NCBI GenBank assembly: GCA_047519465.1
Contig: JAPVTA010000102.1
Coordinates: forward strand, 2,297 to 66,296
From: Thermodesulfobacteriota bacterium
GTDB lineage: Bacteria > Desulfobacterota > BSN033 > UBA1163
Reading direction: 5' to 3'
DNA length: 64,000 nucleotides
Below the pieces are notes generated by a model. That model did no database searches and was not told the DNA's origin. It saw nothing but the letters and a program-made list of their open reading frames with translations. Each line of letters starts with the position of its first letter. Position 1 is the first letter of the stretch. Positions 12,621 to 56,196 of this stretch are shown here, in pieces. The position numbers were made by a program, and so were the translations under genes.

Positions 12621-12717
12621 GGTTCATCACCCAAAATGATTTTCCCCCTTGCCCTCTCGTCCGAGGAGTTGTGTAGGGGCTCAATTCATTGAGCCCTATT
12701 GGCGGGCCTAATAAATG

Positions 12718-12805
12718 AATCTCCTCTCCCCAGGGTGAGGGCTTCCCGGGCACGCCAGTGGCGAACAGAATGTGAGCAGATGAGATTTCATTTATATTGT
12801 GCCCT
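12718..12805 (+). repeat. Interspersed repeat family C (also near 16.59 kb, 50.55 kb, 55.32 kb)
   Basis: gggcttcccgggcacgccagtggcgaacagaatgtgagc...atttcatttatattgtgccc is near-identical to the reverse complement of 55320-55390. Confidence 0.7.
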
Positions 12806-12897
12806 TGCCGACCAAGCCCCTACAATTCTGACACAGTCTCTCAGGAAAGAGGCCGCGGTGAGGGGATCAGCTTGAGTTCAGAAAAAAATATTTTTCT

Positions 12898-12927
12898 ATT
12901 GTTTTAGCGAATTCGTGCGGTATAATG
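12898..12927 (+). promoter_or_regulatory. Sigma70-like promoter (TTGTTT-16-TATAAT) upstream of the Cys-rich protein gene
   Basis: ttgttt..16 nt..tataat, then RBS aaaggaggtg at 12948. Confidence 0.45.
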
Positions 12928-12964
12928 GGTGGGTATCGCATAAATCGAAAGGAGGTGATATGGA

Positions 12965-13336
12965 ATGAAAAAGCTGCTGGTTCTCACCCTTGTGTTTACC
13001 ATGGCTCTTGCAACTCTTGCTCTCGCTGCCAAGACCAAGATGACCGCAAAGGTTGGAGACGAACTCTACGTCTGCGGCTGCGGCGAAGCTTGCCCGTGTG
13101 ACACGATGTCAAGAAACCCCGGCAAGTGCACCTGTGACAAAGACCTGGTAAAGACAAAGGTGACGAAGGTTGAGAAGGGAATGATTACGGTAGAGTCCAG
13201 GAAGAAGCCTTTCATCAGCGTCGGGAAATACGCCTGCGCTTGCGGACCCGATTGTAAATGCGACACCATCAGCCAGAATCCGGGCAACTGCACCTGCGGC
13301 AAGAAGATGATGGAGGTAAAAGCAAAGGGTAAATAG
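12965..13336 (+). CDS. Secreted cysteine-rich tandem-repeat protein (putative periplasmic metal-binding, metallothionein-like)
   Basis: Signal peptide, then two copies of C-x-C-G-x2-C-x-C-D-T-x-S-x-N-P-G-x-C-T-C (12 Cys in total); strong RBS; rho-independent terminator downstream. Confidence 0.6.
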   Translation: MKKLLVLTLVFTMALATLALAAKTKMTAKVGDELYVCGCGEACPCDTMSRNPGKCTCDKDLVKTKVTKVEKGMITVESRKKPFISVGKYACACGPDCKCDTISQNPGNCTCGKKMMEVKAKGK

Positions 13337-13378
13337 GCAACCGCGTTCTATTCGGCAGTGAAATAACGGATACTCATA

Positions 13379-13415
13379 CGGCAGGGTTCCAAAGTTCGAA
13401 CCCTGCTTTTTTTTG
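13379..13415 (+). terminator. Rho-independent terminator
   Basis: gcagggttc-caaagtt-gaaccctgc followed by tttttttt. Confidence 0.8.
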
Positions 13416-13596
13416 AAACAGGAGAACAGGGGCATCCATTGAGGTCCCTACAAGTTTAACACCTTGTAAGGATTGGTTTTTTCTATGAGAGAAGCCCCCG
13501 CAGCCGCTTTTGGTCACTCTACGGATCCGAACAAAAAATTACGAACTTTTGTGCAAATAGGATTGATTTTTTTGTATTTTTAGTGTATATTTATTT

Positions 13597-14772
13597 GTGT
13601 TCGCTGAAAAAAGGAAAAAGGTCTCTAAATTGTCCAAGTCCCCCCTTTCACTTTTCCTCATTTTCTTCTTTTTCCTTTTTTTTGTTTTTGCCTGCTCCAC
13701 GCCGTCCTGGTTTCCAATTAAGAAGGGACCCTCGTACAAGGCAAAAACGAAAGAATTGCTGGATAAAGACGTCATCATCATAGATAAAGAAGAATATGTC
13801 AAGGTCTTGAACCCGAAAGCTTCGGAGGGGAGGGATCAACCCAAGTACCTTTATATTCCGGTGAATGAATACCTATCCAATAGGGAAGCCTTCGCGACCC
13901 AGCCCGTTCGGACAGCAGAAACCAAGATAGAAGCCCCTGCTTCTCCTGTAAAGGCCCCCTCTTCCTTAGAGGAGGAAAGCCATGTCGTGTCTCCTTCGAA
14001 ACCGACGTCCGCGGGCTTAAAGAAAAGGGTTTTGATCTCTTATTTCGATGATCGAATTGCCGAGGGTGAAGAAGTCTTAGGAGACTGGATCGCTGAAAAG
14101 CTGGTAAAAGAGGTAAACCGGAGGTCCCTTCAGGTCCTTTTTACCGACTATCAAGTGGTGAAGGAATTTCTTGGAAATAACGGCGTCGATATGAAGGACC
14201 TTGAAACACCCAAGATCCTCCAATATCTCAACGAGATCTTTGGGGTTCGTGCCCTTATCGTTGGACAGCTCTCAGGCCCCTATGTTTTTACGACCAAGGC
14301 GACGAATGCCGAAGGAGAAACGGCCTCGGCCATCATCCGAATAGATATCAAGGTAGTAGATACTTTTTCAGGGAAAACCCTTAAAACCCTATCCGCAAGC
14401 AATCCGATTTTCGCGGCCAAGGAAAAGGGCTCCTTTTCTGAAGAGAAGGCCAGAGTGAGGGCGATCGACCTTGCCGTTGCTTCCCTCGGACGCTCCCTCG
14501 CCAAAGAATTAGACGGCATGGATTGGTTTTGCCGGATCACGAAGGTCGACGGTGAAGAAGTCTATTTGAATGCCGGAAAATTGACCGGCCTCAAGATAGG
14601 GGATGTGATGGAAGTGTTTCGGCACGGCGGATTTGGAGAACGAGGAGAGGTGAAAGGTAAGGTTCGAGTGTCGGCCTTTTTGGGAATCGATGCTTCGATG
14701 GGCAGGCTGATCCAGGGGAAAAACCCCGATGTCAACGACATTTTGAAGTTGCCCATGAGTGAAGGGAGCTGA
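13597..14772 (+). CDS. Lipoprotein, function unknown (start uncertain)
   Basis: Hydrophobic signal with Cys lipobox (LFFVFAC); low-complexity linker (PASPVKAPSS); conserved C-terminal region. Confidence 0.5.
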   Translation: MFAEKRKKVSKLSKSPLSLFLIFFFFLFFVFACSTPSWFPIKKGPSYKAKTKELLDKDVIIIDKEEYVKVLNPKASEGRDQPKYLYIPVNEYLSNREAFATQPVRTAETKIEAPASPVKAPSSLEEESHVVSPSKPTSAGLKKRVLISYFDDRIAEGEEVLGDWIAEKLVKEVNRRSLQVLFTDYQVVKEFLGNNGVDMKDLETPKILQYLNEIFGVRALIVGQLSGPYVFTTKATNAEGETASAIIRIDIKVVDTFSGKTLKTLSASNPIFAAKEKGSFSEEKARVRAIDLAVASLGRSLAKELDGMDWFCRITKVDGEEVYLNAGKLTGLKIGDVMEVFRHGGFGERGEVKGKVRVSAFLGIDASMGRLIQGKNPDVNDILKLPMSEGS

Positions 14773-14886
14773 GTTCCCTGCGTTGAATCCGCCATCATCG
14801 AGACCGTCTTTGCGTTGACACGGTATCGTTCGTCCCGTAGTTGAGATTGTTTTTTTTCTTACTGCCAGGAAGGAGGTTTTGAATTT

Positions 14887-15369
14887 ATGTTCGCGATCGG
14901 TGATAAAGCGGTTTATCCAGGACACGGGGTTGGAATTATCGAGGCCATTGAGACCAAACAGATCTCCGGTAAAGAACAGAGCTTCTTCATCCTGCGAATT
15001 CTGGAAAACGGGATGACCATTATGATCCCCCGGGATAATGTGGAGGCGGCCAAACTGAGGGGCGTCATCCGGAAAATTGACGTCCGGAAGGTCATCGGAA
15101 TTCTAAAGGACCGGGATGTAACCGTCGATAACCAGACCTGGAATCGGAGATACCGCGAGTATATGGAAAAAATCAACACGGGGTCGATCTACGGCATCGC
15201 GGAAGTACTCCGAGATCTCCATCTTCTCAAAGAAGAAAAAGAGCTCTCCTTCGGCGAGAGGAAAATCATGGATACCGCCAAGAATCTCCTGGTCAAGGAA
15301 CTGGCCATCGCCCGGGATGTGAAAGAGACGGATATCTTGAGGGAGATCAAATCGATCTTCGGATCATAA
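14887..15369 (+). CDS. cdnL: CarD/CdnL-family RNA-polymerase-binding transcription factor
   Basis: N-terminal FAIGDKAVYPGHGVGIIEAIE matches the CarD_CdnL_TRCF domain; 160 aa. Confidence 0.85.
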   Translation: MFAIGDKAVYPGHGVGIIEAIETKQISGKEQSFFILRILENGMTIMIPRDNVEAAKLRGVIRKIDVRKVIGILKDRDVTVDNQTWNRRYREYMEKINTGSIYGIAEVLRDLHLLKEEKELSFGERKIMDTAKNLLVKELAIARDVKETDILREIKSIFGS

Positions 15370-15447
15370 CCTCTCCCAAATTCCTATCCTTCGTTTTCAT
15401 TGGAATGTCTTCTCATATCACCCAATCGTCGAAAGGAGGTGAACGGG

Positions 15448-16500
15448 TTGGGCTCATGGATTCTTGGTATCTTATTGTTCCTGGTCTGCGGGATCGGCGG
15501 GTATGCCCTTACCCAGGGAATTTTCCCGTCTCCCCCGATTCGCCTCCTGGGGTTCATCGGCGGACTCCTCCTCGCCGCCTTGACCCTTCTGATCGAAAAG
15601 GGATTAAAAAAAATCCCCCTAAGAAATTTGTTGGGAAGCTTTATCGGATTGATCCTCGGCATCCTGACCGCCAATTTCCTCTTCAACGTCTTTTTCTCCG
15701 GTCTGTTTAATCAGCCAGAAACGGTCCTTCCTCTTTTAAGCGTGCTCTACGGGGTCTGTGGCTATATCGGCCTTCGAATCGGGTATAAGAAGGGAGAGGA
15801 AATTCATCTCCCCAATTGGAAACTCTTCTCGAAAAATCTCCCTCAGAGTGAAAATGCGAAGATCTTGGATACCAGTGTGATCATCGACGGCCGCATCGCC
15901 GACATCACAGAAACGGGCTTTATCGAGGGGGCGTTGATCATCCCGCAATTCGTTTTGAACGAGCTGCAGCACATTGCCGACTCCTCGGACTCCATCAAAC
16001 GGACGAGAGGCAAGAGGGGTTTGGAGGTTCTCCACCATATACAAAAACAGGCCAACGTGGATGTCCGAATTGTAGACAAGGATTATCCTACGGTCAAAGA
16101 GGTCGATTCAAAATTGATTGAATTGGCGAAAGAGGTCCGGGGGAAGATCATCACCAACGACTCCAACCTTAATAAAGTAGCGGAGCTCCAGGGGATCGAG
16201 GTCCTCAACATCAATGAGTTGGCCAATTCTATAAAGCCCGTTGTCCTCCCCGGAGAGGAGATTAATGTCAAAATCCTGAAAGAAGGAAAAGAAATCGGGC
16301 AGGGGGTGGCATATCTCGACGATGGGACAATGATTGTGGTCGATAACGGCAGGAAACACATGGGCAAGACGATCGATGTCGTCGTCACCAGCGTTCTCCA
16401 AACCCCGGCGGGAAGGATGATTTTCGCTCGCCTCAAGGAGGAGGCAACTCGCGAGGCCAAGGGGAAAGATTATTATTACCCCCTGGACAGTGAATTTTGA
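15448..16500 (+). CDS. yacL: PIN-TRAM domain protein (YacL-like)
   Basis: N-terminal TM segments, PIN domain (ILDTSVIIDGRI...), C-terminal TRAM; start moved to in-frame TTG 8 nt after the aaggagg RBS. Confidence 0.75.
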   Translation: MGSWILGILLFLVCGIGGYALTQGIFPSPPIRLLGFIGGLLLAALTLLIEKGLKKIPLRNLLGSFIGLILGILTANFLFNVFFSGLFNQPETVLPLLSVLYGVCGYIGLRIGYKKGEEIHLPNWKLFSKNLPQSENAKILDTSVIIDGRIADITETGFIEGALIIPQFVLNELQHIADSSDSIKRTRGKRGLEVLHHIQKQANVDVRIVDKDYPTVKEVDSKLIELAKEVRGKIITNDSNLNKVAELQGIEVLNINELANSIKPVVLPGEEINVKILKEGKEIGQGVAYLDDGTMIVVDNGRKHMGKTIDVVVTSVLQTPAGRMIFARLKEEATREAKGKDYYYPLDSEF

Positions 16501-16640
16501 ATCTTCTCCCCTCACCCCGTCCCTCCTTCCTGAGAGGCTGTGCCCCAATCGTGGCATTGGCAGAAGAGACAGTCGGGTTTGAAGCTCCTCGCTCACAGGG
16601 TGGGGCTTCCCGGAAAGGAAATTTCGTTCATATTGTGCCC
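16501..16640 (+). repeat. GC-rich intergenic repeat (ccctcacccc hairpin motif plus a family-C fragment)
   Basis: cccctcaccccgtccctcc and gggtggggcttcccgg...tcatattgtgcccc are shared with 12.7 kb and 55.3 kb. Confidence 0.55.
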
Positions 16641-16894
16641 CTCAACCCCGCCTATCCCGTTCTTCGCGGGACGAGGCACGTTCCGGCCAAAGCTTTGGAA
16701 TGCGGTCTCTTAGGAATCGCTAATCAGTGCTTGCGGGAACGGAATCATTTCATGGATCTCAAACGCGTGAAGCTAACGTGTAAAAGGTTGCCGCTCCATA
16801 GCTTTTCGACCGACCGCCTCTTCTGCCTTGTTATAATTGGTTTTTATGGTCGCGGCATAGGCTCCTGAGGGGGGAGGGAAAGCCTGCCTCCCCT

Positions 16895-16975
16895 GAATTA
16901 TGTTAGGTCCAGGGCCTGCCCCGCCCTCGGTCTATTAATAGTGCGGGACCGGGGCCGGTAGGCAGGGATGAGCTT
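16895..16975 (+). repeat. Palindromic repeat family B (atgttaggtccagggcctgcc...ccggtaggcagg)
   Basis: Near-duplicate of 18428-18470. Confidence 0.6.
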
Positions 16976-16990
16976 TTTGACTGTTGAGCG

Positions 16991-17719
16991 ATGAAGGCCG
17001 ACGCAGTGATCGTCTCCGCCGGGAAGGGACTTCGCTTCATGGAGGGGAAGAAGAAACAATTCCACTCCCTGGGGGGGAAGCCCATTCTCGTTCACACCCT
17101 TGAAAAATTTGAGACCTGCCCTCTGATCCGCTCTATCCTCCTCGTGGTGGGCCAAGAGGATATGGATTACTGCCTGAAAGAAATCGTCGAAAGATATAAG
17201 TTTCAGAAGGTCTCCCAGATCGTCCCGGGGGGAAAGCGAAGGCAGGAGTCTGTTAAAAACGGGGTTGACGCTCTCCCGAAGGAGGCCGACGTGGTATCGA
17301 TTCACGACGGAGTCCGCCCTTTCGTCACCCGAGCCATGATCGAAGATACCCTTCACGCTGCGGCGCGGTTTGGGGCAGTGGTATTGGCCATGCCAGTCAA
17401 GGACACGATTAAAGTCTCCAATCCGGACGGAACGGTTCTGAAGACGCTGGATCGGGAAACCCTCTGGCAAATCCAGACCCCGCAGGCTTTCCGGGTCAGC
17501 GTGATCAAAGAGGCTCACTATCGGGCGGCAGAAGACGGGTTTGTCGGAACCGACGACGCCTCTCTTGTGGAACGCCTGGGAATAAAGGTCCATATCCTTC
17601 CAGGATCCTACACAAACATTAAGATCACGACCCCCGAAGACCTGTTTTTGGCCAACCTCTATCTCAAGACGGGCATTCTTTCCAAAAAAGACACGACAGG
17701 AGGAGGAATAAAAGGATGA
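16991..17719 (+). CDS. ispD: 2-C-methyl-D-erythritol 4-phosphate cytidylyltransferase
   Basis: VIVSAGKGLRF nucleotidyltransferase motif; 242 aa; overlaps ispF start (ATGA). Confidence 0.9.
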   Translation: MKADAVIVSAGKGLRFMEGKKKQFHSLGGKPILVHTLEKFETCPLIRSILLVVGQEDMDYCLKEIVERYKFQKVSQIVPGGKRRQESVKNGVDALPKEADVVSIHDGVRPFVTRAMIEDTLHAAARFGAVVLAMPVKDTIKVSNPDGTVLKTLDRETLWQIQTPQAFRVSVIKEAHYRAAEDGFVGTDDASLVERLGIKVHILPGSYTNIKITTPEDLFLANLYLKTGILSKKDTTGGGIKG

Positions 17720-18189
17720 GAGTTGGCTTTGGATATGACGTTCACGCCTTCGTTTCAGGGAGGCCGTTGATCCTGGGAGGAGTCAGAATCCCGTATCTCT
17801 TCGGGTTAAAGGGACATTCCGATGCAGATGTTCTTCTCCATGCCATCTGCGATGCCTTGCTCGGGGCCGTCGCAGAGGGAGATATCGGAAGACATTTTCC
17901 GGATACGGATCCCCAGTACCGTGATATCAAGAGCACGATACTCTTGAAAAGGGTGCTGACCAAGGTCAGGGAGAAAGGGTTTCGCCCGATCAATGTGGAT
18001 GCCACCGTAGTCGCCCAGAAACCCAAACTCTCCGATAGCATCCCCAGGATGGTGAAAGAGGTTGCGGATGTCCTGGAGATCGAAACCGAGAGGGTGAACG
18101 TGAAGGCCACCACGACAGAGGGGTTGGGATTTGCCGGTAGGGAGGAAGGCATTGCTGCCTATGCCGTGGCTTTGGTCGAAAAAGAGTAA
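17716..18189 (+). CDS. ispF: 2-C-methyl-D-erythritol 2,4-cyclodiphosphate synthase
   Basis: MRVGFGYDVHAF...HSDADVLLHAICDALLGA metal-binding motifs; 157 aa. Confidence 0.9.
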   Translation: MRVGFGYDVHAFVSGRPLILGGVRIPYLFGLKGHSDADVLLHAICDALLGAVAEGDIGRHFPDTDPQYRDIKSTILLKRVLTKVREKGFRPINVDATVVAQKPKLSDSIPRMVKEVADVLEIETERVNVKATTTEGLGFAGREEGIAAYAVALVEKE

Positions 18190-18199
18190 GCACCAAGTT

Positions 18200-18470
18200 C
18201 CAAACCCCCTCACCCCGCCTTCTCCCCGACGGGGAGAGGGGAAGGGTGAAGGGCGGTCATTTGAAATTGGTGCTTGAGATTACGTAGAAAATACCTCCTC
18301 TCCCCTGGTGGGAGATGATTGAGGTGAGGGGGGAATCAGCTCAAATGTCCACTCCCACCCTCACCCTCCCCCGTCGAGGCGGAGTGGGCTTAGTCATATT
18401 TTCATAGTTCGCGCCTGCCTGCCCTGTACTATGCTAGGTTCAGGGCCTGCCGGTAGGCAGGGGTGACGAA
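18200..18470. repeat. Cluster of GC-rich palindromic repeats (families A and B)
   Basis: ccccctcaccccgccttctccccgacggggagaggggaagggtgaaggg hairpin; second gaggtgagggg...ccaccctcaccctccccc copy; ctatgctaggttcagggcctgccggtaggcagg. Confidence 0.6.
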
Positions 18471-18527
18471 CCCGTCATGTAAAATTTATTTGGAATTTGA
18501 GATTTTACCCCAGGTGAAGGGTTTCAG

Positions 18528-19973
18528 ATGGCTTCAGAGGTTCGGGTCCGCTTTGCGCCTGCCCCTACGGGCCTTCTCCATATCGGAAATGCCCGGACGG
18601 CCCTATTCAACTTCCTCTTTGCAAAACGAAATCAAGGAAGGTTTGTTCTCCGCATCGAAGACACGGATATAGAGAGATCGAACGATACCTCCGTTGATCG
18701 AATTTTAGAAGATCTTCGATGGCTTGGAATTTTCTGGGACGAAGGTCCTGACCGAGGCGGACCACTGGGTCCTTACCGTCAATCCCAACGGGTGGCCATC
18801 TATCGTGACCTCGCGGATCGACTGTCCCAGGAAGGAAGGAGCTATAAGTGTTTTTGCTCCGAAGAGAGATTGGAAAACCTTCGCAAAGAACAACTCTCCA
18901 GAGGAAGGATGCCACGGTATGACGGAAGGTGCCGCTCCCTCTCCGAAGAGGACATTGCCAAAATGGAAGCCTCCGGTCTTCAACCCGTCCTGCGATTTCA
19001 CGTCGAAAAAGGGCCGATCGTGTTTCAGGACCTCATCCATGGAAATATGGATTTCGATTCCGCCGGGATCGGCGATTTTATCATCCTCCGGTCCGATGGA
19101 ATGGCGGCTTATAATTTTGCCTGCGTCGTGGATGACCACTCCATGGACATCACGCACGTCATCCGAGGCGAGGATCATCTTTCCAATACCCCCCGGCAGA
19201 TTCTCCTCTATCAAGCCCTGTCCTGGCACCCCCCCCTCTTCGCTCACCATCCTCTGATCCTTGGACCCGACCGCTCCCCATTGAGTAAACGCCACGGGGC
19301 TACGGCTGTTTCACAATATCGTGAAGAAGGCTTTCTACCGGAGGCTCTCGAAAATTATCTCATCCTTTTAGGCTGGACGCCTCCTTCGGGTCGTGAAATA
19401 CTTTCTTCCCAAAAAATGGCAGAATTATTCTCCCTCGAAGACGTTTCAAAAAGTGCTCCCATTTTCAATCGCAAGAAACTGGAATGGCTGAACAGTTTCT
19501 ACATCCGCGAGAAGGACGACGGACAGCTCTCCGAAATTCTGATTCCCTTCCTTCAAAAGGCCGGGATCCAGACGGACGGGATCGATCGTCAATGGCTCAG
19601 ACAAGTCTCCGGCATTTTAAAGGAAAATGTCGTCGTTCTGTCACAGGTCGAGGAGTACCTGGGTATCTTCTTCGATGAAGAATTCGCTTTCGAGGATGGA
19701 GCGAAGCGCCTTCTGCAGGATCCAAAAAATCGGGAGACCCTGCGGTCTCTCCTCGACGCATTAGAGGCTCCATCGGAGATCGTATTCTCCGGACAGAATT
19801 CCTTGCTCCCTCAATTGGAAAAGAAGACAAGTCGGAAAGGGAAAAGCCTCTACGCGCCTCTTCGAGCGGCAGTCACAGGAAAGACAAAGGGACCTGAGCT
19901 GGCCAAGACACTTCCTCTCCTCGGGAAGGAGCGGATCATCAGACGAATTAAAATGGCACTGGAAGTGACTTAA
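18528..19973 (+). CDS. gltX: Glutamyl-tRNA synthetase
   Basis: HIGNART class I motif and downstream KMSKS-region; 481 aa. Confidence 0.9.
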   Translation: MASEVRVRFAPAPTGLLHIGNARTALFNFLFAKRNQGRFVLRIEDTDIERSNDTSVDRILEDLRWLGIFWDEGPDRGGPLGPYRQSQRVAIYRDLADRLSQEGRSYKCFCSEERLENLRKEQLSRGRMPRYDGRCRSLSEEDIAKMEASGLQPVLRFHVEKGPIVFQDLIHGNMDFDSAGIGDFIILRSDGMAAYNFACVVDDHSMDITHVIRGEDHLSNTPRQILLYQALSWHPPLFAHHPLILGPDRSPLSKRHGATAVSQYREEGFLPEALENYLILLGWTPPSGREILSSQKMAELFSLEDVSKSAPIFNRKKLEWLNSFYIREKDDGQLSEILIPFLQKAGIQTDGIDRQWLRQVSGILKENVVVLSQVEEYLGIFFDEEFAFEDGAKRLLQDPKNRETLRSLLDALEAPSEIVFSGQNSLLPQLEKKTSRKGKSLYAPLRAAVTGKTKGPELAKTLPLLGKERIIRRIKMALEVT

Positions 19974-20105: not shown

Positions 20106-20109
20106 ACTT

Positions 20110-21582: not shown

Positions 21583-21689
21583 ACTAAGGCATGACCTACA
21601 GCATTCTACTGAAGACACCCACTCTTCAAATTCCAACCCCCAAAGTCCAAATAAATCTCGGGCACCGGTTTCAAATAGCCGATATGAGT

Positions 21690-21750
21690 CCCCCTCACCC
21701 TTTCCCTCTCCCCGCTGGGGAGAGGGAAAGGGTGAGGGGGGCGGTGTTCT
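21690..21750. repeat. Perfect 24-bp-stem GC-rich hairpin (family A) between convergent cysS and the NTPase-TPR gene
   Basis: ccccctcaccctttccctctcccc-gctg-gggagagggaaagggtgaggggg. Confidence 0.7.
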
Positions 21751-25646: not shown

Positions 25647-27179
25647 ATGTTAGCCAAGGTCTTGAGCAGTAGCGTTTTTGGAATCGATGCCTATGTGGTA
25701 GAAGTGGAGGTAGACATTGCCCAGGGCCTTCCTACCTTTGCAACTGTTGGGCTCCCTGAAGGTGCAGTCAAAGAATCCAAGGACAGGGTCAAGGCAGCCG
25801 TTAAGAACTGCGGCTATGACTTCCCCTCCCAGAGGATTACGGTCAACCTGGCGCCGGCGGATATCAAGAAGGAAGGAGCAGCTTTCGACCTCCCCATGGC
25901 CATTGGCATCCTGGCAGCCACCGAGGTGGTTCAAAAGGGCAAGCTGACCCATTATTTTATTTTAGGGGAGCTCTCCCTTGACGGACAGGTGAAGCCAATA
26001 AGAGGCACACTCCCCATTGCCGTCGCTGCAAGAGACGCGGGGTATCGAGGTCTCCTGCTCCCCAGGGACAATTCAAAAGAGGCGGCGGTAGTGAAAGGAA
26101 TTGAGATTCTTCCCCTCGATACCCTCTCCGATTGTGTTCAATTTTTGAACGAGAATCTCCGGATCAATCCAGTCGAGGTTGATCTGGACGAGATCTTTAG
26201 GACAGAGATGAATTATCCGGTTGATTTCAACGACGTGAAGGGCCAAGAGCATGTAAAGCGTTGCCTGGAAGTTGCGGCAGCGGGGGGGCACAATGTCATC
26301 ATGATCGGTCCTCCTGGCTCCGGAAAAACCATGCTGGCCAAGAGACTCCCCACGATCCTACCGGATATGAATTTTGAGGAAAGTCTTGAAACCACAAAAA
26401 TCCACAGCGTGATGGGTTTGATCCCACCCGATAGCTCCCTCATCGTGACCCGACCGTTTCGAAGCCCTCACCACACGATTTCCGATGCGGGCCTGATAGG
26501 AGGGGGACAGATCCCAAAACCCGGGGAGGTCAGCCTTTCTCACAACGGGGTTCTTTTCCTGGATGAACTACCCGAATTCAAAAAGAATGTCCTGGAGGTA
26601 ATGCGCCAACCCTTGGAAGAGGAGAGAGTGACCATCGCCCGAGCAGCCACCTCCCTCACCTACCCTGCCCGCTTCATGCTGGTGGCTGCCATGAACCCCT
26701 GTCCATGCGGTTATTACAGCGATCCCAACAATGAATGCACCTGCACGGTCCCGCAGATTCAGCGCTACCGATCCAAGATCTCCGGACCTTTGATGGACCG
26801 AATCGACATCCATATCGAGGTCCCCGCAGTCAAGTACCGGGACCTGGCAAGCCGCGAACCCGGCGAGCCCTCCAGGGAGATCAAGAAACGAATCGATTCC
26901 GCCAGAAAGACCCAGCTCAGTCGCTTCAAAGGGCTGAAGATTTATTGCAACGCCCAGATGACCAACCGCCATATCAAGAAGTTCTGTCAGATTGACGAGG
27001 CAAGCCAGAAATTGCTGGAATTGGCCATCGATAAATTCGGCCTGAGCGCCAGGGCCTATGCGAGGGTCCTCAAGGTCGCCCGCACCATTGCCGACCTGGA
27101 AGGCCAAGAGAGTATTCAGCCCGCCCACCTCTCCGAAGCGATTCAGTATAGAAGCCTGGATCGAAACCTGATCTCCTAA
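25647..27179 (+). CDS. comM: ComM/YifB-family Mg-chelatase-like AAA+ ATPase
   Basis: Lon-like N-domain, Walker A GPPGSGKT, ChlI/MCM-type core, C-terminal domain; 510 aa. Confidence 0.9.
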
Positions 27180-27264
27180 CGACAGAAGACTTGTCTCGGC
27201 CCATCAGACAATAAAGGGATTTTTGCGATGGCAGGAAGAGAGTTTCAGCACTATGGAGATTTTG

Positions 27265-42435: not shown

Positions 42436-42570
42436 AACTCAAGGTCGCCCGCACCATTGCCGACCTGGAAGGCCAAGAGAGGATTCAGCCCGCCCACCTC
42501 TCCGAAGCGATTCAGTATAGAAGCCTGGATCGAAACCTGATCTCCTGATAATAGAAGATTTGTCTGTGCA
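42436..42570 (+). repeat. Duplicate of the comM 3' terminus (about 115 bp of coding sequence plus about 20 bp downstream), copy 2
   Basis: ctcaaggtcgcccgcaccattgccgacctggaaggccaagagag...gatctcct is identical to 27068-27178 apart from 1 mismatch; similarity continues past the stop. Confidence 0.9.
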
Positions 42571-47206: not shown

Positions 47207-47211
47207 AGATT

Positions 47212-48925: not shown

Positions 48926-48946
48926 GCAATTGTTGAGGAGAGAGGT

Positions 48947-49207
48947 ATGAAGATTAAGCTCAAATTTTTCGGTTTTCCCGAAGTCGAAAAGAAGGTAGGG
49001 GGTAAGGAGATTGACCTCGACCTGGACGGTAGCACTTACGGTGACCTCCTCAACTATCTGCACAAAACTTATGGTGAGTCAGTCAAGAAGACTTTACGGC
49101 AGCAGATCCTCAGAAACGGGAAGGAATGGATCCGCAGGGATGATCTGGCATACTCCTTGCGAGATGGCGATCAGCTTAGCTTTCTACGGATGGTGTCCGG
49201 CGGATAA
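48947..49207 (+). CDS. MoaD/ThiS-family ubiquitin-like sulfur-carrier protein
   Basis: 86 aa ending in Gly-Gly (LSFLRMVSGG), beta-grasp pattern; start set at the internal ATG (MKIKLKFFG). Confidence 0.7.
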   Translation: MKIKLKFFGFPEVEKKVGGKEIDLDLDGSTYGDLLNYLHKTYGESVKKTLRQQILRNGKEWIRRDDLAYSLRDGDQLSFLRMVSGG

Positions 49208-49261
49208 TTAGGGAATGCCCCACTCCATTCCCTGTTCCTTCGAGGTCTTCGCCTGTGTTCG

Positions 49262-50497
49262 TCAAAGATCCACGATCTTTTCAATCGTTCCCCGGTAGGC
49301 CCCTTCGATAATGGTACGTAGAACCTCTTCGCTTTTCTCAGCCGGTACGGGTCTGGGTGAAGCCTCAAGCTTCATCCTGTTATGAGAGGCATCCCGAACG
49401 GCCTTGTCAATCAGATCCTCCGAAAAATTCCTGAACTCCCTCAATGTTAGAGGGAAATTGACCTTTTTGTAAAATGCGAATAATCCTTGGACAAAATCCT
49501 CTGTCAAGTCCTTTGACTCCGGAATGGACATCAATTCCGCCACCTTCTTCATCTTCTCCGCGATATTCGGGGCGTAATAGGCCGAGTAATACGGCAACAT
49601 GACGGCAACAGCTTCTCCATGGTCCATGACGTTGGACCAACTGAACGAATTGAGGTGGGGCAGGCCAGCCTGTTTATAGAAGAGGACAGACCCACCGAGA
49701 GTGCTCGCGAGAGCCATCATCCGTCTGGCTTCTCTGTCCTGACTATCCTTCAAAACCCTGGGCAGACCCTCGAAAACAAGCTCCAATCCGATGAGCGCCC
49801 TTCGATTGGCTTCCGGGTCTGCCGTCTCGTCGACATTGTTGAAATACCCTTCCATGAGATGGGTCATCGCATCTAAGCCGGTCACTCTGGATACGTGCTT
49901 TTCGCAAGAATAAGTTAGCTCAGGGTCAACGATCGTCTCGGTAGGCACGATGGCAATGTCGAAGATCAACTTTTTCACGTGCAGCCATGTGTCAGTAATG
50001 ACCGAGAATTTGGTGAGTTCACTCCCTGTCCCGCCGGTAGTAGGTAGAGCAATGAGGTCGACGATTTTCTTCACCTTCTGGGAAACCATGCCCACTCCGA
50101 AATAGTCATCGATCTCGCCTTCCTTGATTGTTCCTAAAATGCCCGCTGCTTTGGCCGCATCGATGACGGACCCTCCGCCGATGGCAAGGATTGAACTAAA
50201 ATTTCCGGCCAAAAGATGATAAGCAATACGATAGACCGTCTCCTTGCTTGGATTGGGTTCTATCCCCTCGACTATCTTATAACTGACCAAGTTCTTTTCG
50301 AGAGATCGAAGAACACGATCCAATACTCCTGATTTCCTAATCGAGCCCTTTCCAATGACCAGAAGTGTTCTGTCCCCATATCTCTTGACAACCTCGCCGA
50401 CTCGAAGGACAGCTCCTTCGCCGAAGTGGATCCCGGTGGGTTTCCAGACCCTCAAGATCTCTTCGGCTCCTGCCATCACCCTTTCCATCTCCTTCAT
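49262..50497 (-). CDS. Iron-containing alcohol dehydrogenase (long form)
   Basis: Fe-ADH motifs (GGGSVIDAAK, His cluster); N-terminus of the tracked ORF runs into a repeat element, so the start is approximate. Confidence 0.75.
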   Translation of the reverse strand: MKEMERVMAGAEEILRVWKPTGIHFGEGAVLRVGEVVKRYGDRTLLVIGKGSIRKSGVLDRVLRSLEKNLVSYKIVEGIEPNPSKETVYRIAYHLLAGNFSSILAIGGGSVIDAAKAAGILGTIKEGEIDDYFGVGMVSQKVKKIVDLIALPTTGGTGSELTKFSVITDTWLHVKKLIFDIAIVPTETIVDPELTYSCEKHVSRVTGLDAMTHLMEGYFNNVDETADPEANRRALIGLELVFEGLPRVLKDSQDREARRMMALASTLGGSVLFYKQAGLPHLNSFSWSNVMDHGEAVAVMLPYYSAYYAPNIAEKMKKVAELMSIPESKDLTEDFVQGLFAFYKKVNFPLTLREFRNFSEDLIDKAVRDASHNRMKLEASPRPVPAEKSEEVLRTIIEGAYRGTIEKIVDL

Positions 50498-50520
50498 CTC
50501 AAGATTCTCTCTGCCCCGTC

Positions 50521-50656
50521 CCGCCTTGGCGGGATGCACGGGGTTAAGTCGATTAGACCCGACCACGGGGGGGCACAAGACAAAATGACGTTACATTGCC
50601 TGGAAGCCCCGGCCTGTGCCTGCCTGCCGGTAGCAGGGCCGGAGAGCTTCATTGAG
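50521..50656 (-). repeat. Composite intergenic repeat (family C/B hybrid), copy upstream of the Fe-ADH gene
   Basis: gtcgattagacccgaccacggggggcaca + ...gcctgcctgccggtagcagg... + cttcatt, shared with 55262-55430. Confidence 0.7.
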
Positions 50657-50663
50657 AAAAGAT

Positions 50664-52544
50664 TTATATATTTTCCGCGTACTCTTCCATTCCGAGCCGT
50701 TCGAGCAAGCCCGAGGTCGGATTGCCGTTTGCATCCCACTCCCGAACTTTGTAGTATTCAAGAATTGCCCGATCCAACCCGGTCGGGACCTTTCCTGCAG
50801 CTGGGCCTTCGTTCACGGGCTCCATGAATCGTTTAGGATACTTAAAGTCGTCCTCCTTCTTCCAGCCATAGCGGATGTTAAGAATTTTCTGGAGGGTGGT
50901 AATTCGTTCTCCGCATTTTCGTAAATCATCGGTGTTCCATCCCAGTCCACAGGTCGCATTCAGGGTTTTAGTAAGGTCAGTGAGGGTGTAGCCACTGAAC
51001 TCCTGAAACTTGCAGTGACCGGCCGAGTTGATGACGTTGCAATAATCGTGAAACTTTGCGTTGCGGTCCGGTGCGTTCTCCCAAGACCACCGCTCCTCAT
51101 TCTCAACCTCGCCAATTCCCCATTCAGGGAGCCGGACGTTGCAGACCCAGATGTGCTGGGAATTCCCGCGTTCGTGGTTCGGTCCGGAAGCCACCCCTGT
51201 ACAGTAATTCAAGGCTGAGATGTATTGGGCCCGCCAGTTGTGTGCCGCGATTTCCTGTCCTTTCATGGCAACCGCCCATGCCTCCGAACCTTTTCCTATT
51301 CGCTGGGCGGCATATTGACATCCTTCGCCCAAGAGATAGGCAAGTCCGCCTTCACGAAGACCAATTTTCTTCGTCAGCTCAACGACCGCCTCGTGATTAC
51401 CCCATTTAAGATCGAGCCCATAAGTGTCCTTTTTTGTGATGACACCTTTCTCATAGCATTCCATGGCCCATGCGATGACCACACCCAACGAAATGGTATC
51501 CATGGAATACTTGTCTGCAAGTTCACAGGCATAGGCGATCGCCTTGATATCGGCGCACATCGTGTTGAAGCCCATCATCGCGAAAGATTCGTACTCCGGT
51601 CCCTTCCCCTTTAACTGATAAGGTCCTTCTTTGACCTCGCAACGATTATGGCACTGGACAACGCAATATTTGCACGGCCAGGGTTTTGCGTTCAGTTCTC
51701 TAGCATAGTTGGAAGCATGCCACGCCTTCACCCCTTCAGGCCAATCCGCCAGTCGATAGTTGCTAATCGGCAAGTTCCCCTGAGGAGCGAACAATTCCGT
51801 TGCTGCCGCTGTCCCTACCCGTTTGGTCTGGAGCCATTCAGGTTTTTGGGAATCAATCAACGCAAGCCGCCGGTTGATCTCCTTGTTCAGCTTATTCAGC
51901 TCCGCTGAGTCAGAGTATTTCAACTTCTCGCTACCCCTTATAGCGACAGCTTTTAGGAGCTTTGATCCCATGATCGCGCCCATTCCGCTTCGACCGCAGT
52001 ACGACTTCTTTCGGGTCTGAATATTGGCAAACCGAACTCCCCGCTCTGCTGCTTGGCCGATGCTAAGCACTTCGAAGTCGTCCCCCTCGGTGGCGTGAAT
52101 TGCGTCCTCGGCCTCATAAGCATCCCTCCCCCAAAAACGGCCGGCACCCTTGAGCACCGCCCTGTCGTCATCGACGACGAGATAGACAGGTTTTTCGGCC
52201 CGACCCGTCACCACAATGGCATCATATCCCGCGGCCTTCATCTCGATGCCGAAGCTCGCCGTGGCCGCAGAACCGGCATTTAGGTAAATGGAAGGTGAAA
52301 TAGCGGTCGTTGCCCACTTGCCCGCTCCGGTCTGCGCAATCCCATTCAGAGTCCCCGCGGCAAAGGTCAAGCAATTCGCAGGATCGAAAGGCAGCGTACC
52401 TCGCGGGCTCTCCCTCCACATGAAATATGCGCCAAGCCCCTCTCCTCCCAAAAAATATTCGTAGATTTCATCTGGAATCGTTTCAGCTTTGCAGGTCCCC
52501 CTGCTCAAATCGACCCTCAAGACTTTGTTCCATACGCCTTTCAT
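50664..52544 (-). CDS. aor: Tungsten-type aldehyde:ferredoxin oxidoreductase (AOR family)
   Basis: AOR_N (MKGVWNKVLRVDLSRG...FLGGEGLG) plus AFOR C-domains; 626 aa. Confidence 0.85.
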   Translation of the reverse strand: MKGVWNKVLRVDLSRGTCKAETIPDEIYEYFLGGEGLGAYFMWRESPRGTLPFDPANCLTFAAGTLNGIAQTGAGKWATTAISPSIYLNAGSAATASFGIEMKAAGYDAIVVTGRAEKPVYLVVDDDRAVLKGAGRFWGRDAYEAEDAIHATEGDDFEVLSIGQAAERGVRFANIQTRKKSYCGRSGMGAIMGSKLLKAVAIRGSEKLKYSDSAELNKLNKEINRRLALIDSQKPEWLQTKRVGTAAATELFAPQGNLPISNYRLADWPEGVKAWHASNYARELNAKPWPCKYCVVQCHNRCEVKEGPYQLKGKGPEYESFAMMGFNTMCADIKAIAYACELADKYSMDTISLGVVIAWAMECYEKGVITKKDTYGLDLKWGNHEAVVELTKKIGLREGGLAYLLGEGCQYAAQRIGKGSEAWAVAMKGQEIAAHNWRAQYISALNYCTGVASGPNHERGNSQHIWVCNVRLPEWGIGEVENEERWSWENAPDRNAKFHDYCNVINSAGHCKFQEFSGYTLTDLTKTLNATCGLGWNTDDLRKCGERITTLQKILNIRYGWKKEDDFKYPKRFMEPVNEGPAAGKVPTGLDRAILEYYKVREWDANGNPTSGLLERLGMEEYAENI

Positions 52545-52654
52545 ATTTCTTTCCCCCTTTCACCTTTTATCGTCTTTCCCCGGTATTCAAATACCCGCAA
52601 ACCATTGAATGGGATCATCTCCTCTCCCAAACCACTCCCAGTAGCTTTTCTCGC

Positions 52655-53488
52655 TTAAATATCAATGGGTCTAAAAATCAGCACAATCGCCATCACAATA
52701 AAGACCATTGTCTCAGCACCTTGCGACCAGTACCTTGCCGTCAAAGACATGACCATCCCCAAACCAAAAGCGGAGAGAAACGTTCCATTGAGATTCCCCA
52801 TCCCCCCGACGATGACCACGGCGAAGCTCAGCAAGAGGACTGAGAGCCCCATGTAAGGGTGGACCGAACTGATGGGCGCATAGAGAACCCCTCCTAAGGC
52901 TGCAAGGGCGCTCCCTAACACAAAAACGATAGAAAAGTATTTGTCAACATTTATTCCAAGACATCTCACCCCATCTTTGTCCTCCAGGGCTGCCACGACG
53001 ATCTTTCCCACAATGGTCCTCTTAAAAAATATATTTAATGCAAGAAAAAGAAGGATAGCAATCATCACGATCAGGATCCGGTAAATTGGGAGGGAGAGGC
53101 CCCAGAACATCAGATATTTTCCGATAGGATCGCTGATGGGAAGGGGCCTGACACCCCATATCCATTTGATCGCATCGACCCCTATCAGTGCAACGGCGAA
53201 TGTGGCGATAAAGGTATAATCGAGAGATTCTCCGTAAAGCCTCCTGATAATAAATCGCTCAATGAGATAGCTTATCGGAATGACGGTGAGGATCGCCAGG
53301 ATTCCACCGAGGGGAAAATACAATTTCAGGAAATTGACGAGAGTGATCAATATGTAAACGCCTATGGTATAAGTTATGGTATGGGCAAAATTGATCACCC
53401 TCATCGTTCCAAAGGTTAACGAAAGGCCGATTGAAATAAAGTAAAGGATTGCCCCGATTGTCAGTCCATAGACAATGGTGTAGATCAC
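52655..53488 (-). CDS. ABC transporter permease (LivH-like)
   Basis: The tracked ORF starts at TTG. A GTG start 10 nt after aaaggagg gives a non-overlapping 277-aa product with the INFAH motif. Confidence 0.7.
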   Translation of the reverse strand: MIYTIVYGLTIGAILYFISIGLSLTFGTMRVINFAHTITYTIGVYILITLVNFLKLYFPLGGILAILTVIPISYLIERFIIRRLYGESLDYTFIATFAVALIGVDAIKWIWGVRPLPISDPIGKYLMFWGLSLPIYRILIVMIAILLFLALNIFFKRTIVGKIVVAALEDKDGVRCLGINVDKYFSIVFVLGSALAALGGVLYAPISSVHPYMGLSVLLLSFAVVIVGGMGNLNGTFLSAFGLGMVMSLTARYWSQGAETMVFIVMAIVLIFRPIDI

Positions 53489-53490
53489 GT

Positions 53491-54441
53491 CTAAATAGCC
53501 TCCTTTTTCATGGACCCCAGAACGTCTTTCCTTTTTCCCAAATATTCCCAACCCCTCTGAATATATCCCCAAACACCCGTGCGGAACCGAAAGACAATGA
53601 TCAGCAAAGAAAATCCCAGGAACATCTCCCAACGGTAAATGTAGATGGGTAAAAAATTGCTGATCACCATATAGATCACTCCACCCACAATCGCACCGTA
53701 GAGATGACCCGCTCCTCCGATCAGGCAGGCGAAGACAACTCCCACGTTACTGTGCACATCCATCGCATTGGGATTGACATAATTATAATTAAGAGCGGTT
53801 AACGCTCCGGCAAGGCCAGCTAAGGAACCAGCCAGGGCAAAAGTCAGCCACTTATACAGAAAGGTATTATATCCAAGAAACCTGACCCTCATCTCATCTT
53901 CCTTAATGGAACGGATCAGAATCCCATATGGAGAAGAGGTTAACTGCCTCAGAATGTAAAAAACTAACAACAGGCAAAAAAGGGTGAATCCGAACATGAT
54001 CGGACGGCTACCAAAATTGAGAAAACCCAATTTTGAGGCGGTGACCCCAAACCCATCTTCTCCCCTTGTAATGTTTCTAAGGGGCGAGAGAACGAGAAAA
54101 AATCCAATATGATTGAAAGCCAAATTGATCAAGGCGAAACAGGCGCCGGTCGTCCTGACAATGATGAGGCCGAGAAGCATTGCCAGCAATCCTGCAAAAA
54201 CGATACCTATAAGAATCGCTAGGAGAGGGTTTCCGCCAAGATATTTAATGAAAAGGCCACAAAAATAGGCGCCGGTACCCAGATAGAGCATTTGGCCAAA
54301 AGAAAGTCGGCCCATATACCCATAGAGCAAGTCAAAGGACATCGCAAAGATGCAGAAGATCATAAAATCCGTCACCCGGTGAACCGATAGGATAGGTGTG
54401 ATGATCAGAAAACCTGCCGCGATCGCCAGTAAATCAACCAT
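53491..54441 (-). CDS. ABC transporter permease (LivM-like)
   Basis: Polytopic membrane protein; start moved to the internal ATG to avoid overlap with the upstream ATPase gene (uncertain). Confidence 0.65.
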   Translation of the reverse strand: MVDLLAIAAGFLIITPILSVHRVTDFMIFCIFAMSFDLLYGYMGRLSFGQMLYLGTGAYFCGLFIKYLGGNPLLAILIGIVFAGLLAMLLGLIIVRTTGACFALINLAFNHIGFFLVLSPLRNITRGEDGFGVTASKLGFLNFGSRPIMFGFTLFCLLLVFYILRQLTSSPYGILIRSIKEDEMRVRFLGYNTFLYKWLTFALAGSLAGLAGALTALNYNYVNPNAMDVHSNVGVVFACLIGGAGHLYGAIVGGVIYMVISNFLPIYIYRWEMFLGFSLLIIVFRFRTGVWGYIQRGWEYLGKRKDVLGSMKKEAI

Positions 54442-54538
54442 TCGATATTCTTTGATCTGATATTTGTTTATATTGTTTGAGTTTGATTTAAACGTTCCCT
54501 CGGCTTTCAATTTGAACTCCTTAGGGGCACCGATATGC

Positions 54539-55228
54539 TTAGAGATACTCTTCAAATCCCCTGGTATCCGAGATCTCCGACCTTTCAGCAATCTGCCGGA
54601 CCACCTTGCCTTCTTTAAAGATATAGATCCGATCAGCCAAACGGTTGACCATGGCAAGGTTCTGCTCGACGATCACAGCAGAGACCCGGTCTTTTAGACC
54701 GCTGAGGATGTTTACGATCTCATCAATGACGATTGCAGCCAACCCCTGAGTAGGTTCATCAATTAAAAGGAGCTTCGGTTCCCCGACCAAAGCCCGGCCA
54801 ACTAAGAGGATCTGTCTTTGTCCGCCGCTTAATTGTGCGGCCTTTGTTTTTAAAAAGGCTTCCAATTTTGGATAGATGCTGGTCACCTTGCCCAACGCAA
54901 TATCCATGGGCTCGCCGCTCGCGAAAGCAGCAATCTCAATGTTCTCTTGAACGGTCAAATTCCCAAAAACTTTCTTTTCCTGAGCAACATACCTAAGCCC
55001 TCTTAAGTAGAGATCTTCGGGAGAAAGACCTGATATTGCTTGCCCTTGATAGGCGATGGATCCCTTTTGCGGCTTTAAAAGGCCGATGATAGTTTTCAAA
55101 AGGGTCGTCTTACCCGCTCCGTTTCGGCCGATCAAGAATGCCATCTGCCCCTTTTCGATATCGAGGGAGACACCATGCAATGCTTTTGCATGACCGTAGG
55201 CAACATCTAAATTTCTAATTTGAAGCAT
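54539..55228 (-). CDS. ABC transporter ATP-binding protein (LivF-like)
   Basis: Walker A GRNGAGKTT, signature LSGGQRQ, Walker B LLLIDEP. Confidence 0.8.
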   Translation of the reverse strand: MLQIRNLDVAYGHAKALHGVSLDIEKGQMAFLIGRNGAGKTTLLKTIIGLLKPQKGSIAYQGQAISGLSPEDLYLRGLRYVAQEKKVFGNLTVQENIEIAAFASGEPMDIALGKVTSIYPKLEAFLKTKAAQLSGGQRQILLVGRALVGEPKLLLIDEPTQGLAAIVIDEIVNILSGLKDRVSAVIVEQNLAMVNRLADRIYIFKEGKVVRQIAERSEISDTRGFEEYL

Positions 55229-55261
55229 ATCATCCTTTCGAAAACCTCATTGGCCGGCAAG

Positions 55262-55430
55262 TGCCCGCAAATCCCGCCTATTAGGCGGGGGCAAGTCGAT
55301 TAGACCCGACCACGGGGGGCACAATATAAATGAAATTTACTTGGCTCACATTCTGTTCGCCACTTCGTGTCCGGGAAGTCCCGCCGTGCCTGCCCCGTCC
55401 TAACGGGGTGGGCGGGGCTTCATTATGTGG
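55262..55430 (-). repeat. Composite intergenic repeat (family C), copy upstream of the livF-like gene
   Basis: gcctattaggcggg hairpin, gtcgattagacccgaccacggggggcaca, and the reverse complement of the 12732-12800 element. Confidence 0.75.
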
Positions 55431-56196
55431 TCGATTGATCCATCTCGCTTTTGCCCCAGTAGCATTCTCTCACTTTAGCGTCATAGAGCACATGGTCAGG
55501 ATCTCCTTCACAGATAAAATTGCCCTCATTCATGACGCAGAGGCGGTCCACAAGGTTTACGATCTTCGATACCTTGTGCTCAATGATGACCAACGTAAGG
55601 TTCTTTTTGATCTCTTGAAGGAGACCGAGAACCTCTGAAATCTCTCCATCACTGAGTCCGGACAGAGGTTCATCTAAGAGGAGAAGTTTTGGGTTAAGCG
55701 AGAGGGCAATTCCAATTTCAAGCATTCTTTTCGATCCATAAGGAAGCTCGGAGGTAATGGTGAAGGCTTTGTTTTGAAGTCCGACCAATTTCATCGCCTT
55801 CGCACAGTCTTCTAAGACATCTTCATTCTTTGCCGATGAGAAAAAGAACTTCCGTAGGGAGGTATACTTCTCCTTGAATCGAATGCTGGAGAGGACAAGA
55901 TTTTCCCAAACGGTCATTGAGTTAAATACAGAGACGAGCTGAAACGTCCGGACCATCCCTTTTATGACTCTTTGGTATGGAGGAATGTCAGTGATCTCAT
56001 CACCTAAGAAAGTGATGCGTCCCTCCGTGGGAGGGAAAAAACCTGATACCAGGTTAAAGAGGGTCGTCTTTCCCGATCCATTTGGCCCGATGATGCCAGT
56101 CGTCTCATTCTTCTTAATTATAAAATTCACCTTTTTGACGGCGATGAGGCCGCCAAAATGTTTACTGAGCCCCTCTGCTGAAAGAATTTCTGTCAT
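55423..56196 (-). CDS. ABC transporter ATP-binding protein (LivG-like)
   Basis: Walker A GPNGSGKTT, signature LSGLSDGE region, Walker B LLLLDEP; start set at the ATG (MTEIL). Confidence 0.8.
   Translation of the reverse strand: MTEILSAEGLSKHFGGLIAVKKVNFIIKKNETTGIIGPNGSGKTTLFNLVSGFFPPTEGRITFLGDEITDIPPYQRVIKGMVRTFQLVSVFNSMTVWENLVLSSIRFKEKYTSLRKFFFSSAKNEDVLEDCAKAMKLVGLQNKAFTITSELPYGSKRMLEIGIALSLNPKLLLLDEPLSGLSDGEISEVLGLLQEIKKNLTLVIIEHKVSKIVNLVDRLCVMNEGNFICEGDPDHVLYDAKVRECYWGKSEMDQSTT

Follow-up and report, generated by a model that had tools for sequence, protein, structure and literature searches.

The insertion sequence IS608 inserts 3' of the tetranucleotide TTAC, with a left cleavage site that precedes the left hairpin by 19 nt and is outside the element, and a right cleavage site that follows the right hairpin by 10 nt (PMC3201880). 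Among repetitive extragenic palindromes (REPs), two large superfamilies are defined by a GTAG or CGTC tag (PMC3733652). Here we analyzed three families of GC-rich hairpin repeats, A, B and C, in a stretch of 64,000 nucleotides (the window) on contig JAPVTA010000102.1 of a Thermodesulfobacteriota bacterium (assembly GCA_047519465.1). Family C is a non-coding modular element that has inserted into intergenic DNA, including the spacers of operons, directly 5' of a YCAA that was already there (TTGR in the complementary strand), and its boundaries, its rapid turnover, its distribution in the lineage, its presence or absence between related genomes and the decay of its copies follow directly from the comparisons described below. 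That the three families are insertional repeats is very probable, and in our judgment they probably represent non-autonomous, hairpin-forming mobile repeats specific to Syntrophales-like Thermodesulfobacteriota, resembling REPs, bacterial interspersed mosaic elements (BIMEs) and palindrome-associated transposable elements (PATEs).

An earlier note on this DNA had described repeats resembling REPs or miniature inverted-repeat transposable elements (MITEs) scattered through intergenic regions, and this was correct; every repeat copy in the window lies between open reading frames (ORFs). Self-against-self BLASTN recovered copies of all three families at or near their proposed positions, and motif counts compared with shuffled sequence also placed all three above chance. 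Short diagnostic motifs occurred 4-6 times in the window where 0.2-0.75 occurrences were expected, and no shuffle reached the observed counts; for instance, GGGGCTTCCCGG of family C with at most one mismatch was found 4 times (0.75 expected) and GGGTGAGGG of family A 6 times (0.62 expected, no shuffle reaching 6). A chance similarity of low-complexity, GC-rich sequences without common origin could be suspected from single motifs that are short and G/C-rich, but it is already refuted by these counts, by BLAST E-values from 4e-12 (family C, 12742-12804 against 55317-55378, inverted, 87%) to 1e-15, and by more than 100 near-identical copies with unrelated flanks in other samples. Since the families are widespread in related genomes, the motifs are not unique to the window either.

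The description of family C had to be revised in several respects. The motif of about 70 bp became, upon alignment with copies from other genomes, a defined modular element of 65-190 nt, and what was considered a partial copy at 16.6 kb is really its most canonical full copy. The string gtcgattagacccgaccacgg, taken for a neighbor joined to family C, is instead an optional module inside the element, as is the supposedly separate piece gtcgattagaccc..., the reverse complement of the module that we call insert 2a. Likewise, the 50.5-kb site had been regarded as a related or joined sequence but is itself a diverged family-C copy. The family-B core CCTGCC-GGTA-GGCAGG is also present inside the family-C copies at 50.6 kb and 61.7 kb. 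In total, a covariance model of family C (R1), for which 54 short forms were used, identifies five window copies (Table 1).

Family C reads 5'-TGAAGCTCCCCGCCC...GGGGCACGTTCCGG-3', is typically about 110 nt long and has conserved boundaries, TGAAGC... and ...CCGG, with the short-form consensus TGAAGCTCCCCGCCC-ACA-GGGCGGGGCTTCCCGG-AAAGGAAATTTCGTTCATATTGTGCCCC-TTGA-CCCCGCC-TACAA-GGCGGGG-CTTGC-GGGGCAC-GTTCCGG. Two near-identical REP-like hairpins, P1 and P4 (CCCCGCC-YACAR-GGCGGGGCTT), are placed in direct orientation around an AT-rich spacer, and an outer stem, P3 (GTGCCCC/GGGGCAC), encloses the second of them, P4. Smaller hairpins, including family B, are nested in the element at fixed points. 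Among 98 unique full copies, taken from the metagenome matches listed, 18 have an extra hairpin in the P1 loop, 26 carry insert 1 (GCACGCAGTGGCGAGCAGAATGCGAGC, placed after CTTCCCGG), 2 carry insert 2a (CCGTGGTCGGGTCTAATCGAC, placed after GTGCCCC, and also present in two window copies) and 8 carry the family-B hairpin CCTGCCTGCC-GGTA-GGCAGG as insert 2b, while two alternative forms of the 3' hairpin occur in 56 and 36 copies. Family B is present in its long form in the copy of L045 and inverted in that of L097 (L numbers denote sampled loci), and shorter relatives of 45-66 nt with the same ends are found in L022, L032, L063 and L065. The 20-mer ATTTCRTTYATATTGTGCCC, which served as the search pattern for family C, imposes a seeming invariance on the center of the element; in copies that the model alone recovered (L071, L078, L069 and the window copy at 50.5 kb) the AT-rich center is variable, and the ends and hairpins are kept. 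At one locus represented by two strains, the copies (L010:2534-2664 and L135:5247-5355) differ in their module sets, with the P1-loop hairpin present or absent and a different 3' hairpin form, suggesting copy replacement or gene conversion between copies. A REPIN-like arrangement, in which two family-C copies are inverted and 85 nt apart, was seen only in L071 (1024-1134 on the plus and 1219-1326 on the minus strand).

Three other identities of the element were considered and dropped: a coding sequence, because the length variants are not multiples of three and hence out of frame; an attC site, because GTTRRRY core sites are missing; and a riboswitch, because the element adjoins many unrelated genes.

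The search with the 20-mer covered 185,579 species genomes and a metagenome collection. In the species genomes 14 stretches matched, of which 7 were true copies from six Thermodesulfobacteriota species represented by metagenome-assembled genomes (MAGs) and the other 7 were chance matches in unrelated phyla, without the rest of the element. At least 120 metagenome contigs matched, nearly all of them with true copies and each with different flanking DNA. Viral contigs and plasmids gave no true match to family C, and neither did a search of paper full text for strings of the element sequence. Related sequences derive from MAGs labeled Thermodesulfobacteriota, 'delta proteobacterium' or Syntrophaceae. 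The repeats constitute an abundant, clean and apparently undescribed superfamily in a widespread, uncultured, sulfate-reducer-related lineage of wetlands and sediments.

For comparison at the same loci, syntenic regions were fetched via homologs of IspD (L136-L139, 80-91% identity) and of livG (L140-L142, 81-87% identity), bringing the sampled loci to about 0.9 Mb, mostly picked around family-C copies; in addition, positions 7716-19202 of the window are 99.97% identical to contig JAPVSZ010000013.1 of MAG GCA_047519545.1. Gene order is conserved in the syntenic relatives but the repeats are not, and relatives with 80-91% identical IspD are without the window's copies. Only a single family-C copy, at another site (L137:18070-18180), was found in 125 kb of syntenic relatives, compared to five in the 64 kb of the window. 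The copy at 12716-12811 has no counterpart in the orthologous L136 spacer, and the one at 55254-55422 begins directly after the livG-like stop codon (55423-55425), inside an ABC-transporter operon, where the livG-livF spacer is 194 nt long in the window compared to 18-48 nt in L140-L142, with TCAA present in the spacer of two of these relatives. The repeats are surrounded by ordinary genes of housekeeping and metabolism (kdsB, carD, the PIN/TRAM gene, ispD, ispF, gltX, cysS, liv-type ABC transporters, AFOR, Fe-ADH and panB).

In six comparisons of filled and empty sites, TGAAGC...CCGG was always situated directly 5' of a pre-existing TCAA or CCAA, and no target-site duplication was found in any of them beyond an ambiguity of at most 1 nt (Table 1). 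The four bases following CCGG were tallied in 97 copies, with a pyrimidine in all 97 at the first position, C in 95 at the second, A in 91 at the third and A in 79 at the fourth. On the other side, C never stands directly before TGAAGC, and one position further out 90 of 94 copies have A or T. Terminal inverted repeats were not found, as the 5' end TGAAGCTCCCC has no similarity to CCGGAACGTGCC, the 3' end in reverse complement.

Table 1. Repeats and associated features of the window, numbered from its first base unless a locus is named; in the last column a slash marks the junction in the empty relative.
Feature	Position	Strand	Details	Empty relative and junction
Family C, canonical short form (TGAAGCTCC...GTTCCGG)	16580-16686	+	95.7 bits, E = 2e-21; target CCAA 16687-16690; between PIN/TRAM gene and ispD	L137, L128: ...gggtt/CCAAagc...
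Family C with insert 1 (GCACGCCAGTGGCGAACAGAATGTGAGC), 3' hairpins deleted, end TTGCCGA	12716-12811	+	15.6 bits; CCAA 12812-12815; between kdsB and Cys-rich gene	
Family C, long form of 169 nt with P1-loop hairpin, insert 1 and insert 2a (CCGTGGTCGGGTCTAATCGAC)	55254-55422	-	Model R1; CCAA 55250-55253	
Family C, diverged, family-B-like hairpin in P1 loop, insert 2a, center diverged, 3' end eroded	~50512-50651	-	28.4 bits; between AFOR and Fe-ADH genes	L140 (5' junction): ttctcaa/TCAAAac
Family C, internally deleted, 65 nt	61728-61792	-	25.7 bits; TCAA 61724-61727; between panB and ferredoxin gene	L142 (clean): caccatcG/TCAAtttcaaac
Family C in L107				L102, L049: aaaG/TCAAgaaa
Family C in L018				L064: gatt/TCAAAA
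Family A, perfect palindrome CCCCCTCACCCTTTCCCTCTCCCC-GCT-GGGGAGAGGGAAAGGGTGAGGGGG	21686-21744	.	Spacer after cysS; 24-nt arms at 21690-21740	
Family A, three copies or remnants	18203-18258, 18296-18350, 18353-18392	.	ispF-gltX spacer; hairpin of 18203-18258, z = -2.9	
Family-A-variant half copy	16501-16545	-	Inverted match to 12832-12866 (36 nt, 86%)	
Family-A-variant half copy	12832-12866	+	Downstream of 12.7-kb family-C copy, with CCAA and a 16-nt spacer between	
Family B, GCCTGCCTGCCCTG-loop-CAGGGCCTGCC-GGTA-GGCAGG	18411-18464	+	Upstream of gltX	
Family B, further hairpin nested in loop	16880-16976	+	Upstream of ispD; same nested form in L032	
Likely native promoter of Cys-rich gene, TTGTTT-16-TATAAT	~12899-12926	+	Conservation with L136; outside repeat	
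AT-rich fourth repeat type	21620-21660; L137:11200-11290; L138:6300-6420; L139:11280-11340; L071:1140-1215			

In the internally deleted copy at 61728-61792, fusion via the shared GGCGGGGCTT has joined the 3' strands of P1 and P4. Three ORF calls in the window (16497-16868, 60927-61793 and 49262-50578) begin inside family-C copies and are spurious or over-extended, because the element itself offers GTG, TTG or ATG at its start together with an open frame; orthologs of the ferredoxin and of the ADH are each 27 amino acids shorter than the longest-ORF calls of the window. For annotation this means that the repeats create over-extended or spurious ORFs and lengthen operon spacers.

Copies of family A are palindromes spanning about 50 nt, CCCCCTCACCC..CCCTCTCCCC-loop-GGGGAGAGGG..GGGTGAGGGGG, and the perfect copy after cysS (self-BLAST E = 1e-15) folds as single-stranded DNA with -33.2 kcal/mol (z = -7.9). 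Ten further copies were found in unrelated flanks of related contigs, and the family is missing from the orthologous ispF-gltX spacers of L136-L139, just as the copy after cysS is missing in L137-L139; the half copy at 16501-16545 has a homolog in L128 and none in L137. The two family-B copies of the window are 87% identical (16882-16920 against 18413-18451, E = 3e-5), and the 20-nt core hairpin of this family occurs alone, nested inside family C and nested inside itself, with related copies in 13 sources. At the aligned position of L137 the family-B copy at 16.9 kb is missing, and wherever spacers were comparable the relatives were without families A and B. After cysS, the window has family A whereas L137 and L138 have family-B-like hairpins, indicating that such post-gene spacers collect different hairpin repeats in different genomes.

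Compared with PATEs and IS608, family C likewise has two similar subterminal hairpins in the same orientation, no terminal inverted repeats and no target duplication, and its insertion abuts a conserved tetranucleotide outside the element on one side only (YCAA after CCGG in 80-100% of copies, depending on the base). On the opposite strand the layout is TTGR, CCGGAACGTGCCCCGCAAG (19 nt), hairpin, and at the other end hairpin, AGCTTCA (7 nt to the end), so that TTGR precedes a hairpin by 19 nt as TTAC precedes the left hairpin of IS608. However, the tetranucleotide is TTGR and not TTAC, the distance from the right hairpin to the end is about 7 nt and not 10, the outer stem encloses the left hairpin of family C, and no cognate tnpA or tnpB was seen in the loci sampled; the resemblance to IS608 is one of layout only.

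With REPs and BIMEs the repeats share extragenic, GC-rich imperfect palindromes repeated many times (family A, the family-B core and P1/P4), as well as composite mosaics of hairpins and linkers with optional modules, situated in operon spacers or after genes and varying in copy number between related genomes. In contrast, they lack the GTAG or CGTC tag: P1 and P4 have GCT or TGA at one flank and CTT at the opposite one, and the flanks of family A are variable. Family C further differs in that its hairpins are direct and not inverted as in REPINs, in its defined YCAA target, and in that no RAYT was found in the loci. Like the classical MITEs (for example Correia, ERIC and RUP), family C is small, non-coding, multi-copy, intergenic and insertion-polymorphic, has nested or modular variants and may be co-transcribed with genes, but the terminal inverted repeats and the target-site duplication are missing. 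In IS91 and ISCR elements, which use an HUH enzyme, a conserved tetranucleotide abuts one end and no duplication is made, and IS91 targets GAAC and CAAG. Going by this description, the tetranucleotide at one end and the absence of duplication are alike in family C, whereas targets, size and end architecture differ, and no Y2 transposase was seen in the loci.

The hairpins of family C are supported. The consensus folds as single-stranded DNA with -34.2 kcal/mol (z = -5.95), 94% of cells are paired compared to 29-55% with slid partners, and compensatory double changes were found in 11 cells compared to 1.6 in shuffles, mostly in P1 and P4. A long-range pairing, P2 (CCGGAA/TTCCGG), is present in the consensus fold but was rejected, since the beta subfamily alters its 3' side without compensation and sequence variation thus gives it no support. 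Relative to shuffles, the folds of the window copies are at best slightly more stable (z of -1.9, -0.5 and +0.3, the last being +0.34 for the 12.7-kb copy), and these copies look like decaying insertions, which fits selfish DNA that is not under selection.

Strong hairpins in 3' untranslated regions, operon spacers and spacers between convergent genes could also be expected from a cis-acting structured RNA, which in the manner of REPs and BIMEs would, once transcribed, stabilize the mRNA upstream of it, end transcription or adjust the expression of operon genes differentially. The presence of different repeat families in the same post-gene spacer across genomes (after cysS, family A in the window and family B in L137 and L138) and a possible weak co-orientation with genes would agree with such a role, but we consider it unlikely. 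Selection on one transcribed strand left no sign and was rejected, since single stem mismatches are as often G.T (19) as A.C (20). Moreover, the copies in the window are structurally decayed, copies are not conserved at orthologous sites, and no terminators with T-runs were called at them. Rfam searches of the window and three loci matched no family to the repeats; at gathering thresholds the window gave nothing, and by E-value family A drew generic hairpin noise alone and family C drew no hit.

The earlier note had also suggested that family C is a portable promoter or regulator-binding module, such that the gene behind each copy would receive a -35/-10 pair or an operator from it. This was based on the string TTGTGC-18-TACAAT and on three copies oriented with the following gene. 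The string does exist (12798-12827), but only half of it lies inside the element, as TACAAT (12822-12827) falls in the flank, past both the end of the element (12811) and its CCAA (12812-12815). None of the 98 unique copies has a -10-like hexamer 16-19 nt after TTGTGC, a consensus scan from 12.5 to 18.6 kb found no promoter-like or terminator-like site in any copy, and the AT-rich center is variable in copies that were not selected by the 20-mer. The element is also missing from orthologous spacers in which the genes and the native promoter are conserved. For the Cys-rich gene, the spacer from kdsB in L136 has no repeats, yet it retains TTGATT-16-TATAAT and AGGAGG, matching approximately 12899-12962 of the window, which places the gene's own promoter outside the element; judged from this conservation, the promoter listed in Table 1 is likely the native one.

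With respect to orientation, each of the five window copies has the same direction as its flanking genes, including two (50.5 kb and 61728-61792) that had previously been missed as copies. In the other loci, where genes were called crudely at three ORF stringencies after masking the element, the flanking genes showed the patterns ++ in 26-27 cases, -- in 17, convergent in 12 and divergent in 8, and 47 of 83 downstream genes had the orientation of the copy (47:36; P = 0.06-0.63 by ORF stringency, significant at none of the three). The bias thus largely vanishes with more copies, although 31 of 48 are co-oriented at the strictest cut-off. Furthermore, 12 copies are located between convergent genes, 17 are antisense in tandem pairs, and two are within operon spacers that are only 18-48 nt long in relatives. 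Considering these findings, a portable promoter or operator is highly improbable; family C is selfish-type repeat DNA, and the understanding of promoters or regulation is unchanged by it. Directly after the Cys-rich gene (12965-13336) the window has a clear intrinsic-terminator-like hairpin with a T-run (13380-13407), and the product of this gene weakly resembles the N-terminus of ExtJ (E = 5e-5, below the family cut-off).

How non-autonomous repeats of this kind would move can be proposed by analogy. Tentatively, and quite possibly, they transpose as single-stranded DNA by means of an HUH-type enzyme, such as an IS200/IS605 TnpA, a RAYT or an IS91-like protein, which would act in trans and recognize the hairpins; IS91-like and RAYT-like enzymes are both possible movers. 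The element inserts directly 5' of YCAA without target duplication, and effects on neighboring genes, for example by hairpins in a livG-livF polycistronic mRNA, would be side effects as with REPs and BIMEs and not due to a built-in promoter. A search for an autonomous parent via unpaired 5' or 3' ends gave only short relatives and chance matches, and there was no RAYT among the loci sampled, a small sample with 64 kb of the source genome.

Several observations weigh against the interpretation of the repeats as mobile elements moved in this way. No transposase gene with family-C ends was found in the window and about 0.9 Mb of loci, a small and biased sample, and a crude pattern search for HUH/Y motifs in 2033 ORFs of the sampled loci and the window was empty; similarly, no Y1_Tnp was present in the Pfam listings of L001 and L136-L142. 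The boundary of family C is ambiguous by 1 nt, the junction base being T in 4 of 5 distinct empty sites and C in 41 of 97 filled sites. The weak co-orientation with genes (31:17 at the strictest cut-off, p = 0.06, in addition to 5/5 in the window) would, if real, indicate some selection or a strand-biased mechanism. Finally, both 3'-hairpin variants, with a CTTGC or an AC linker, use the same YCAA target although their putative guides differ in position, which is not predicted by a simple IS608-style guide just before the inner hairpin. The GCAAG before the inner hairpin does hold CAA, complementary to TTG, but the alternative 3' variant without GCAAG still uses YCAA.

A more specific proposal, which we regard as somewhat unlikely, is that family C and its short relatives, with their common ends TGAAGC...CCGG before YCAA, are the non-autonomous cargo of an undescribed single-strand system of HUH type in uncultured Syntrophales-like bacteria, in which the choice of TTGR and the nesting of hairpin into hairpin would be programmed by the element's own DNA. 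If true, this would be a new natural example of DNA-guided target selection, and the modular variants (the P1-loop hairpin, inserts 1, 2a and 2b, and the two 3' forms) would record the nesting. The value of the repeats lies in their defined YCAA target, nested modular build and abundance in an uncultured lineage. They are a lead to the enzyme that moves them, and the defined insertion site and abundance allow their use as strain markers in metagenomes.

Besides the three families, a fourth, AT-rich repeat with runs of the type ttcaaat(g/t)ccaaat... is present in many intergenic flanks of the lineage, often near family C. In a related MAG contig, a c-di-GMP-I-GGC riboswitch (RF03167; L005:4867-4945, minus strand; 65.6 bits compared to a gathering threshold of 59) lies about 1.3 kb from a family-C copy. 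Within the window, the last 128 nt of comM/yifB (gene 25647-27179, repeat 27069-27196) recur 15.4 kb downstream with 95% identity (42438-42565) and again, in part and with 83-90% identity, a further 21.2 kb downstream (63700-63795). The two blocks between these repeats contain metabolic genes (MFS, three AFOR genes, liv-type ABC operons, TetR, GntR) but lack an integrase. In syntenic relatives comM is followed by other genes, and the arrangement resembles the outcome of serial insertion at the 3' end of comM.

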